Positions 9,037 to 10,196 of a stretch of 64,000 nt of DNA are shown here, in pieces. Both the position numbers and the translations under genes were made by a program. The notes under the pieces are model-generated. The model searched no databases, was not told where the DNA came from, and saw only the letters and a list, made by a program, of their open reading frames with translations. The stretch spans positions 6,335-70,334 of the forward strand of contig CAYOOO010000005.1 of assembly GCA_964405655.1 (NCBI GenBank), given 5' to 3'. The stretch's first letter is position 1; every line of letters starts with the position of its first letter. Source of the stretch: an uncultured Gammaproteobacteria bacterium. Its GTDB lineage: Bacteria; Patescibacteriota; Microgenomatia; Daviesbacterales; UBA10151.

Positions 9037-9585
9037 TTAGAATACTAGTTTATATAGTTTAGAACTCAGGCGGGTTTTAGCATACTTTTTAATCAGTTCA
9101 AAACCACCAATAAAGGTAGCAGTGTAAAAGATATCCCCAAGTAAGGTATTTTTGTAAAAGGGGATGGCGCTTATATAGCTTTGGAGTAAACCAGTTAAAT
9201 CTTTTGAATAAGTTGAGACTGGGTTTGACCAAACAGCTAAATTAGTCAGAAGATAAAAAAGTGTTGAGGAAAACAGGGTTGCTCCAAAAATAAGCAAGGG
9301 GTTTTTGTGAGGCTTCAACCACAAACCAATCAGACCAATTAGCAAAAAACTTCCATAAACACTAATCATGTCTAAGCCATAAAAGCCAATAGAGAGATCA
9401 CTGATAAAAAGAGCACTTATAGGCAAAACAAAAGCAAATTTTTTAGGCAGATAAACACCGGAAAATAAAGCTATAGCTGTAATTGGAGCAAAATTAGGTG
9501 GGTGAGGCAGGAGTCTTAAGACTACCCCAATCAATATCATCAAAACTGGTGCTAACTTTAAATCTTTAATCACTTTAAATCCCAT
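9037..9585 (-). CDS. Polytopic membrane protein, possibly an ECF-transporter S-component-like protein.
   Basis: 182 aa with ~5-6 hydrophobic helices and an HPPNFAPI motif. It overlaps the DUF4430-like gene upstream. Confidence 0.35.
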   Translation of the reverse strand: MGFKVIKDLKLAPVLMILIGVVLRLLPHPPNFAPITAIALFSGVYLPKKFAFVLPISALFISDLSIGFYGLDMISVYGSFLLIGLIGLWLKPHKNPLLIFGATLFSSTLFYLLTNLAVWSNPVSTYSKDLTGLLQSYISAIPFYKNTLLGDIFYTATFIGGFELIKKYAKTRLSSKLYKLVF

Positions 9586-9953
9586 TCTATTTTCTCATTA
9601 TCCTGGCATGTGTAGGCAGAGGCACCAATTGTGGCTTCTTGACCATCAATTGAATAAAGCCAGTATTTACCATCACCTTGGCTAACTCCATTTATTGCAG
9701 TCACCATCTTACCTAAAGCGCTGTCAGTATACTCAACACTTTTAGTACTTTTCTGCAAAGCTTCAAATGCAGTTTTGCCTTTTTGGCACTGATAGGAGAT
9801 TTTACTAGTTTGAGAAGCTGCTGACAAAGAGGCAGTAGGTTCTTCTTGAGAGAAGGGTTTAAGAGGTCTTGAGGAACTAATTAAATAGGTGGTAGCTGCA
9901 ATCAAAACCAAAACAACTATAAATCCCACCAGCAAGTTTAAGTTCTTATTCAT
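9570..9953 (-). CDS. DUF4430-like (transcobalamin-like fold) exported protein.
   Basis: Signal anchor, then ...NGVSQGDGKYWLYSIDGQEATIGASAYTCQDNEKIEW, which resembles the DUF4430 signature (W-Y-x-NG/DG ... D-I-EW). Confidence 0.4.
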   Translation of the reverse strand: MNKNLNLLVGFIVVLVLIAATTYLISSSRPLKPFSQEEPTASLSAASQTSKISYQCQKGKTAFEALQKSTKSVEYTDSALGKMVTAINGVSQGDGKYWLYSIDGQEATIGASAYTCQDNEKIEWDLK

Positions 9954-10045
9954 AAGTAGAAAAGAAGTGTCTGGTTAAAATACCAGTCTTAGACTAACTT
10001 TGTCAATTCACAAGATATTGGGGGGTAGACAGACCAGAACTCATG

Positions 10046-10118
10046 TCCAAGGCCCTGGAGTCGAACCAGGCTAAACAGGTTTTACAGACCTGCGCATCAA
10101 CCGCTCTGCCAGCCTTGG
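10046..10118 (-). tRNA. tRNA-Tyr (anticodon GUA). It is type I (short 5-nt variable loop) with a C1:G72 acceptor pair and A73; no encoded CCA.
   Basis: Reverse complement: CCAAGGC-TG-GCAGAGCGGTTGATGC-G-CAGGT-CTGTAAA-ACCTG-TTTAG-CCTGG-TTCGACT-CCAGG-GCCTTGG-A. This folds as a cloverleaf with GTA at positions 34-36. Confidence 0.8.
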
Positions 10119-10196
10119 GTTTAAAACCTAAATTAAACTCATAAATTATACCAAGATCTTGAGGGTGATGCCAGAGAATAAGGAGTAAAGCCTTAG

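Follow-up and report, generated by a model that had tools for sequence, protein, structure and literature searches.

How does a bacterium come to hold a tyrosine tRNA and a tyrosyl-tRNA synthetase (TyrRS) that both follow the identity rule of archaea and eukaryotes, and are the two used together? The question is raised by a 64,000-nucleotide stretch of contig CAYOOO010000005.1 (the window), which encodes a tRNA-Tyr with the anticodon GUA and a TyrRS of archaeal type. Bacterial tRNA-Tyr is type II, with a variable arm (V arm) to which the S4-like domain of bacterial TyrRS binds, and it carries G1-C72; archaeal and eukaryal TyrRSs are without the S4-like domain and use C1-G72, A73 and the anticodon (PMC5370408, PMC6214036, PMC9976931). 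These papers bear out the rules on which the initial annotation of the window had relied when it proposed a matched non-bacterial pair. We argue that the two genes very probably form the working tyrosine-charging system of Candidatus Daviesbacteria, in which an archaeal-type TyrRS gained by horizontal transfer would act on a matched tRNA. Why should this matter? The tyrosine identity rules have long been treated as fixed between domains and are the basis of the Methanocaldococcus jannaschii orthogonal pair in code expansion. Bacteria that live on the archaeal rule show that wholesale swaps of an identity set occur in evolution, and from such bacteria one can draw new orthogonal pairs for which the ribosomes, the EF-Tu and the tRNA processing of a bacterium are already the native setting.

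What, then, does the tRNA locus encode? ARAGORN finds a single tRNA in the whole window, which lies on the minus strand at 10045-10118 and is called as tRNA-Tyr (anticodon GTA), and Rfam RF00005 matches 10118->10046 with 52.1 bits (gathering score 29, E=2.6e-08, model 1-71/71). The two programs agree with the interval and anticodon first proposed, to which we add the strand, and tRNA prediction, suggested at the time as a check, returned no other fold or anticodon class. At E<=1, the Rfam scan of the window gave this tRNA-Tyr and nothing else, that is, no second tRNA and, upstream of tyrS, neither a T-box nor a leader of another kind. In the RNA sense the molecule reads CCAAGGC UG GCAG AGCGGUUG AUGC G CAGGU CUGUAAA ACCUG, followed by UUUAG CCUGG UUCGACU CCAGG GCCUUGG A. 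The claimed identity features can be read directly: the acceptor stem CCAAGGC/GCCUUGG gives C1:G72 and C2:G71, the discriminator is A73, and the variable loop is UUUAG, 5 nt long; the G1:C72 pair and the 13-14-nt variable arm of a canonical bacterial class-II tRNA-Tyr are both absent. No CCA is encoded. The D stem has 3 bp and is closed by a G13•A22 mismatch, and position 37 is A37, so the fully paired 4-bp D stem and G37 of an imported archaeal body are likewise absent (a weak test, made with one archaeal comparator). The archaeal/eukaryal identity set that had been claimed for this tRNA thus holds for the acceptor identity and the short variable loop, but does not extend to the D arm and A37, which look bacterial.

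The cloverleaf is conserved among relatives. In an alignment of the window tRNA-Tyr with 17 relatives (18 sequences), 95% of cloverleaf cells are paired, as opposed to 73% in shuffles; compensatory, both-side changes affect 13 of the 21 pairs, as opposed to at most 4 when the 3' partners are slid; and the covariation score is 0.60, compared with 0.16 in shuffles. Among Daviesbacteria orthologs, compensatory changes turn the anticodon stem CAGGU/ACCUG into CUGGU/ACCAG and the T stem CCUGG/CCAGG into CCAGG/CCUGG. Positions 13 and 22 are unpaired in all 18 sequences, and G71, G72 and A73 are invariant; the pattern with which relatives were sought imposed C1 and C2, but not G71, G72 or A73. The position of the gene near pheT and the gene for the class A penicillin-binding protein PBP1 is kept in 9 other loci from metagenome-assembled genomes (MAGs). 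A separate observation concerns positions 15 and 48, the Levitt pair: here they are G15 and G48, and the family from the candidate phyla radiation (CPR) has G15 with G48 or U48, unlike the canonical G15:C48 of a Dormibacterota family discussed below. The non-canonical combination in CPR tRNA-Tyr may be a scar left when the V arm was lost, or it may form a tertiary contact of another kind.

The enzyme, too, is of the kind that the initial annotation had named. It scores 403.7 bits against the NCBIfam model NF006330, the archaeal-type equivalog (PRK08560; cut-off 220), and 107.4 bits against the bacterial tyrS model TIGR00234, below the cut-off of 113.8. A tryptophanyl-tRNA synthetase (TrpRS) identity for this product was ruled out, as every trpS model lies far below its cut-off (98.4 bits for TIGR00233, cut-off 176.75). 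The only Pfam match, PF00579, spans residues 30-341 of 368 and belongs to a family that covers tryptophan and tyrosine synthetases alike; neither the Pfam scan nor end-to-end alignment to Protein Data Bank (PDB) chains revealed the C-terminal, V-arm-binding S4-like domain. The best solved relatives are archaeal: the Pyrococcus horikoshii structure 2cyc (1.6e-100; query 2-359 against chain 2-367 of 375), then 7fg6, 2cya and 2cyb, which share the domain layout of the window TyrRS, and the M. jannaschii enzyme. The four PDB entries named come from archaeal hosts and are about 45-50% identical to the window TyrRS, as read off the alignment, and the bacterial 1h3e matches over the N-terminal catalytic part only (3e-12). 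The motifs HIGQ (46-49) and KMSKS (243-247) are present. We mapped residues onto an M. jannaschii TyrRS sequence that was correct at 15 of 15 well-known positions of that enzyme: Tyr36 and Asp176 of the tyrosine pocket correspond to M. jannaschii Tyr32 and Asp158, Asp330 and His327 to Asp286 and His283, and Arg192 and Arg149 to Arg174 and Arg132, which means that the C1-reading arginines are kept. In the M. jannaschii enzyme, Arg174 reads C1 and Lys175 reads G72 (Tsunoda et al. 2007, PMC1934993), and Arg132 touches C1 via water while the Val195 backbone reads A73 (PMC1934993). As a side observation, many of the 50%-identity representatives related to this TyrRS are 600-900 residues long (e.g., P0121, P0132, P0155, P0158 and P0167), and they have either at least two stretches that match or a long extension at the N terminus; double-length (pseudo-dimeric) TyrRSs or fusions may account for them.

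Do the enzyme and the tRNA belong together, and to this host? They appear matched because the tRNA-Tyr has the identity set that such an enzyme uses and a variable loop of only 5 nt. In 26 fetched bacterial loci, an archaeal-type TyrRS lies within the same locus (<=8 kb) as a class-I C1:G72 tRNA-Tyr, which strongly suggests that the two are used together and supports the non-bacterial, matched pair originally proposed. The host, from groundwater, is clearly a CPR bacterium, Candidatus Daviesbacteria, placed in the Microgenomates group of the Patescibacteria/CPR, and the bacterial nature first assigned to it is borne out by the genes of the window: bacterial threonyl- and phenylalanyl-tRNA synthetases (ThrRS and PheRS α/β), IF3, L20, the PBP1 transglycosylase/transpeptidase, a full F1Fo ATP synthase operon, RecG, NusB, RNase III, S16, TrmD, GyrB and the type IV pilus proteins PilB, PilC, PilM and PilO. 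The tRNA-Tyr gene stands in the neighborhood thrS-infC-rplT-pheST-PBP1, and tyrS is surrounded by the atp operon, recG, nusB, rnc, rpsP and trmD; the two are on the same contig, 21 kb apart and unlinked, in housekeeping neighborhoods and not in an island. An identical TyrRS protein is on record as tyrosine--tRNA ligase [Candidatus Daviesbacteria bacterium] and is found in GCA_016176395.1, contig JACOXF010000009.1 (124,862 bp), and the same protein with the same neighbors occurs in three independent Logan assemblies. The features of the window are collected in Table 1.

Table 1. Coordinates of the features of the window treated in the text, with the strand and the basis of the call
Feature	Coordinates	Strand	Basis
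tRNA-Tyr(GUA), class I, 73 nt	10046-10118	minus	ARAGORN, Rfam, sequence, covariation
Archaeal-type TyrRS, 368 residues	31175-32281	plus	NF006330, PDB alignment, residue mapping
Candidate sigma-70-like promoter: CTGGCA, 18-nt spacer, TGnTATAAT	10145-10174	minus	Consensus match only
DUF6580 + DUF4430 gene pair	9037-9953	minus	
PheRS beta, 577 residues	4439-6172	plus	TIGR00472
Open reading frame, 753 residues	10197-12458	minus	
Open reading frame, 357 residues	12795-13868	minus	
Open reading frame, 511 residues	13869-15404	minus	
Open reading frame, 773 residues	15445-17766	minus	
Open reading frame, 394 residues	18070-19254	minus	
PaaX central/Cas2-like protein, 185 residues	39152-39709	minus	PF20803; weak PF09827 match

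How might such a system have come about? We posit that horizontal transfer brought an archaeal-type TyrRS into an ancestor of the Daviesbacteria lineage. This TyrRS, without the S4-like domain by which bacterial TyrRS grips the long variable arm, would read C1:G72, A73 and the GUA anticodon instead. The simplest mechanism would be ordinary tyrosylation under the archaeal rule within a bacterial cell, with the ancestral bacterial pair lost or replaced and with the native bacterial tRNA-Tyr remodeled, its 1:72 pair flipped and its V arm lost, as opposed to an archaeal import. From the sequences, we infer the charging specificity, the loss or replacement of the ancestral pair and the remodeling of the tRNA. 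In this model, one further discrimination is needed: bacterial prolyl-tRNA synthetase (ProRS) reads an acceptor end resembling C1:G72 plus A73 (PMC9976931 Table 1), so it must be the anticodon that sets the molecule apart from tRNA-Pro (G35/G36 versus U35/A36).

The relatives of the TyrRS give some indication of where it came from. Within the lineage, the protein is conserved in at least 120 clusters at 90% identity, which are 68-100% identical to it and nearly all full-length; among the matches listed, the named clusters are all Daviesbacteria. The closest clusters outside Daviesbacteria, in a library of 50%-identity representatives, are 45-49% identical; an “archaeon” MAG and a Micrarchaeota (DPANN) archaeon are among them, as is Saccharolobus. 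The MAG homolog and the Micrarchaeota homolog sit on truly archaeal contigs, one with TBP, diphthamide synthase and CDC48 and the other with PriS/PriL and an S-layer protein. In a neighbor-joining tree (63 sequences, 348 columns, 100 bootstraps), the Daviesbacteria TyrRSs form a clade with 98% bootstrap support; the other bacterial clades are Saccharibacteria with Andersenbacteria (100%), Dormibacterota with Chloroflexia (100%), a Peribacteria/Patescibacteria group (91%), and Portnoybacteria with one Saccharibacteria sequence near the M. jannaschii type (100%). Archaeal or unnamed sequences stand between these clades, and the tree fits the account in the literature, in which there were several transfers and archaea took part.

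The origin of the tRNA seems to have been different. The class-II tRNA-Tyr of Escherichia coli (the sequence used is a 100% match to annotated tRNA-Tyr genes) has G13•A22 and A37 like the window tRNA, and a native origin is favored because both the D stem with this mismatch and A37 are shared. By comparison with the 3-bp D stem and A37 of the window, the tRNA-Tyr of M. jannaschii has a 4-bp D stem and G37. It serves as the one archaeal comparator, since the contigs of the nearest archaeal TyrRS homologs show no tRNA-Tyr over ±10 kb around those genes. V-arm-bearing C1-G72 tRNAs have also been taken as showing derivation from bacterial tRNA-Tyr, according to Mukai et al. (PMC5370408). With a single archaeal comparator, the evidence is only suggestive of a native bacterial tRNA-Tyr that would have undergone a 1:72 flip and V-arm loss.

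Several observations weigh against this account of a working, transferred and matched system. Asn193 of the window TyrRS sits at the position of M. jannaschii Lys175, the residue that reads G72; of the 63 sequences in the alignment, 49 have K and 4 have N at this position, and the substitution is probably tolerated because the Micrarchaeota homolog carries the same one. The minimum free energy (MFE) fold of the bare tRNA-Tyr sequence is not a cloverleaf (z = -1.8), although a non-cloverleaf MFE fold is common for tRNA and is outweighed here by the covariance-model and covariation evidence. The TyrRS phylogeny, which the initial annotation had suggested as a check, delivers on its shallow clades, as the Daviesbacteria value shows, but not on its deep nodes, which are unsupported and fix neither the donor nor the number of transfers. 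Finally, the absence of a second, bacterial-type Tyr pair, to which we return below, covers only the window and the fetched loci.

Can the same data be explained in another way? It is very improbable that archaeal contamination or a chimeric contig in the metagenome bin has placed the pair in a bacterium that is not its real owner. CPR and DPANN bins do cross-contaminate (Mukai et al., PMC5370408), but both tRNA-Tyr and tyrS are flanked on each side by bacterial genes on one contig, the identical TyrRS with its neighbors recurs in independent assemblies, the tRNA-PBP1-pheT synteny holds in the 9 independent MAG loci, and the named TyrRS relatives among the matches listed are all Daviesbacteria; on the flanks, the recurrence and the synteny, we rejected this explanation. 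We give just as little credence to the idea that the tRNA-Tyr is a non-functional relic or a tRNA-like sequence borne by a mobile element. Such a reading could appeal to the missing CCA, to a 15:48 combination (G:G) that is not the usual Levitt pair and to a promoter that is a consensus match only; however, an unencoded CCA is common in bacteria, all stems are intact with compensatory substitutions among Daviesbacteria orthologs, and the gene keeps its chromosomal position and is the only tRNA-Tyr seen in the window. Could the pair instead be an auxiliary orthogonal system, beside a canonical pair (bacterial TyrRS plus class-II tRNA-Tyr) in some other part of the genome? We consider this improbable, if less far-fetched than the two readings above. 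A second TyrRS or tRNA-Tyr, even a degraded one, is not found in the 64 kb, a validated bacterial TyrRS query and E. coli tRNA-Tyr have no match in the window or in 119 fetched loci, and a remnant of a second system was on these grounds rejected for the window and those loci. The tyrS gene has a core housekeeping context and is conserved like PBP1 (71-79% versus 72-75% identity among Daviesbacteria), and CPR genomes, at ~1 Mb, rarely keep duplicate synthetases. There are precedents for an auxiliary system in PMC5370408, namely a TrpRS-A/tRNA-Trp(A73) operon beside bacterial TrpRS in Beckwithbacteria and two different C1-G72 tRNA-Tyr genes in one Roizmanbacteria genome, but the dual systems that Mukai et al. 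flag there are for Trp, not Tyr.

The alternative that deserves the most thought concerns only the tRNA: was it imported from archaea together with the TyrRS, as a ready-made pair, and not remodeled from a native tRNA? We regard this as unlikely, without dismissing it. Class-I tRNA-Tyr and archaeal-type TyrRS genes are adjacent in several other bacterial lineages, and in the Dormibacterota locus L036 the TyrRS start codon lies ~68 nt after the tRNA on the same strand, which has the look of a transferable cassette. No V-arm intermediates were found for the tRNA family, as 108 genes have the same 5' half as the window tRNA and all of them are without a V arm, and Mukai et al. allow “bacterial or archaeal origins” for such tRNAs (PMC5370408). 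The same source, on the other side, has the V-arm-bearing C1-G72 tRNAs that point to bacterial derivation; the 3-bp D stem with G13•A22 and A37 are as in E. coli class-II tRNA-Tyr, a comparison that is thin on the archaeal side with its one comparator; and in Daviesbacteria tRNA-Tyr and tyrS are 21 kb apart in separate housekeeping contexts. We thus continue to favor a remodeled native tRNA-Tyr that serves a horizontally acquired enzyme.

How does this system compare with those already described? The finding is not new, because Mukai et al. described the same pair and named Daviesbacteria: C1-G72 tRNA-Tyr with an archaea/eukarya-type TyrRS was reported from Microgenomates as well as from further phyla of the CPR (Mukai, Reynolds, Crnković & Söll 2017, Life 7:8, PMC5370408), and the legend to Figure 2 of that paper lists Daviesbacteria among the major bacterial TyrRS groups, so that what we see in the window has been known for CPR, including Daviesbacteria, since 2017. 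The paper calls this the first evidence that there are bacteria with an archaeal TyrRS and a tRNA identity to match, notes both V-arm-containing and V-arm-lacking C1-G72 tRNA-Tyr, and cites experiments where the function of the E. coli pair was taken over by pairs from archaea or eukaryotes. The phenomenon is the same as ours; the accessible text does not say whether the Daviesbacteria tRNA-Tyr is V-arm-less, and the window tRNA clearly is. The survey presented there is limited to CPR, and our scan also finds the pair in Dormibacterota and Chloroflexota. For later literature on the Daviesbacteria Tyr pair, we found only PMC5370408 in the full-text literature. What is added here is confirmation in a newer genome, a bacterial-like tRNA body and a hint of spread beyond CPR.

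The M. jannaschii pair, which is orthogonal in E. coli, has the same enzyme type, the same C1:G72/A73/G34 set and a class-I tRNA, and it works inside a bacterial translation apparatus (PMC6515474). The equivalents of Arg132, Arg174 and Asp286 are kept in the window TyrRS; at 368 residues, however, the latter is longer than the 306-residue M. jannaschii enzyme and nearer the P. horikoshii type, besides having Asn for Lys175. The canonical bacterial pair (1h3e of Thermus thermophilus, 2ts1 of Bacillus stearothermophilus and E. coli tyrT) shares GUA, A73, A37 and G13•A22 with the window, but its G1:C72, its 13-14-nt variable arm and its S4-like C-terminal domain are all unlike the window pair. 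In human mitochondria, as in the window, a tRNA-Tyr of bacterial lineage is without a V arm (PMC9976931 and PMC5370408); there, however, the TyrRS has stayed bacterial-type, keeps its S4-like domain and has lost 1:72 discrimination, whereas the window enzyme would be an archaeal-type replacement. The TrpRS-A/tRNA-Trp(A73) operons of Microgenomates offer another archaeal-identity pair in CPR (PMC5370408). Such an operon coexists with a bacterial pair and has an extra ORF1, whereas in Daviesbacteria 21 kb separates the two Tyr genes, which are unlinked, and the window shows no second system.

How far does the archaeal rule for tyrosine extend among bacteria? A scan of one genome per GTDB species with the tRNA 5'-half pattern CCNNNNNTRGCNNAGNGGNNNANGCNNNNNNCTGTAAA gave 113 loci (L001-L113). 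ARAGORN called tRNA-Tyr(GUA) in 107 of these, every one class I (73 nt to the discriminator), and by a simple parse all but one of the called tRNAs have a 5-nt variable loop, C1:G72 and A73, the exception being L085 with a 4-nt loop. A CPR family with the variable loop UUUAG or UUUAU comprises Daviesbacteria, Saccharibacteria, Parcubacteria, Andersenbacteria, Portnoybacteria, Kuenenbacteria, Gottesmanbacteria, Woesebacteria and Peribacteria. A second, non-CPR family begins CCCAGGG, has the variable loop GUAYC and encodes CCA; 58 of its loci are labeled Dormibacterota and 11 Chloroflexota in the broad sense (Chloroflexota/Dehalococcoidia/Chloroflexia), and a few single bins are labeled otherwise. 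The Dormibacterota carriers include chromosomes of 3.2-3.3 Mb (e.g., L009, OY970355.1, and L112, OY970307.1; L076 is a further example locus). The tandem of L036 (L036:1490-2789(-)) is repeated in several Dormibacterota loci with likewise spaced, same-strand genes; the tandem TyrRSs are of the NF006330 type, at 381-391 bits, and many of their relatives are named Dormibacteria or Dormibacteraeota. No paper on a Dormibacterota/Chloroflexota class-I tRNA-Tyr pair was found in the full-text literature.

From these observations we draw a proposal that is tentative and that we hold with some doubt. Might the archaeal-identity Tyr pair extend beyond CPR, fixed in Dormibacterota and present in part of Chloroflexota, as a cassette-like and naturally orthogonal system in which one remodeled bacterial tRNA-Tyr lineage travels with the archaeal enzyme? 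Spread as a self-sufficient cassette is suggested because some lineages have a compact tRNA-TyrRS tandem, and a single remodeled tRNA lineage, as opposed to independent adaptation, is implied because the bacterial tRNAs share the 3-bp D stem and A37. The Dormibacterota and Chloroflexota are free-living bacteria with 3-Mb genomes.

The Dormibacterota copies show peculiarities of their own. Six of them (L035, L062, L089, L091, L105 and L112) have an 8-nt T loop (UUCGAACU) in place of a 7-nt one, which shifts the simple parse, and at least one contig combines such a variant copy with an orphan 5' half of tRNA-Tyr. Orphan halves of this kind, nt 1-38 and ending at the anticodon loop, occur at L014:7651-7688(+) and L024:6668-6705(+) and on the minus strand in L068 and L082; the sequence that follows them is conserved among three of the four Dormibacterota loci, and full tRNA-Tyr copies (L100, L062 and L044) lie on the same contigs, at a distance of ~6.5, 13 or 32 kb. 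The arrangement resembles an att-type duplication made by an element whose integration site is the anticodon loop, and a large intron could also account for the halves. A different matter is the labeling of several CPR-type loci. L023, L048, L061, L063 and L108 come from bins deposited as “uncultured Gammaproteobacteria” that carry the CPR-type class-I tRNA-Tyr. In the last four, the tRNA-Tyr adjoins PBP1 genes that are 52-73% identical to that of the window, L048 and L063 also have PheRS-beta genes that share 54-59% identity with that of the window, and the acceptor stem in L108 does not differ from that of the window tRNA. The labels of all five are almost certainly wrong.

Some further features of the window can be noted. 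Upstream of the tRNA-Tyr gene, the promoter candidate has 10 of 12 consensus matches and a TG before the -10 element, and it ends 27 nt from tRNA position 1; since the scan found 3 sites in the region compared with 1.7±1.4 in shuffles, support for it is weak. Between tRNA-Tyr and the PBP1 gene is the DUF6580 and DUF4430 pair; in the Daviesbacteria locus L049, PBP1 follows tRNA-Tyr directly, ~45 nt on, without the pair, which is a small lineage-specific insertion. The PheRS beta protein matches positions 168-691 of the 798-position bacterial model TIGR00472 and, on this alignment, lacks the B1/B2 region at its N terminus as well as the C-terminal end; many PheRS-beta proteins of CPR bacteria have no B2 domain (Mukai et al. 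2017, PMC5370408). Directly upstream of tRNA-Tyr is a run of five large open reading frames, all on the same strand, whose products mostly have no Pfam match, one of them having an N-terminal cupredoxin-like domain. The 357- and 511-residue proteins each match several paralogous regions in L108, which suggests an expanded family of surface or secreted proteins. Last, the gene for the PaaX/Cas2-like protein has trmD on one side and the pilus genes on the other; we noticed no CRISPR array, and the protein carries the PaaX central/Cas2-like domain PF20803.

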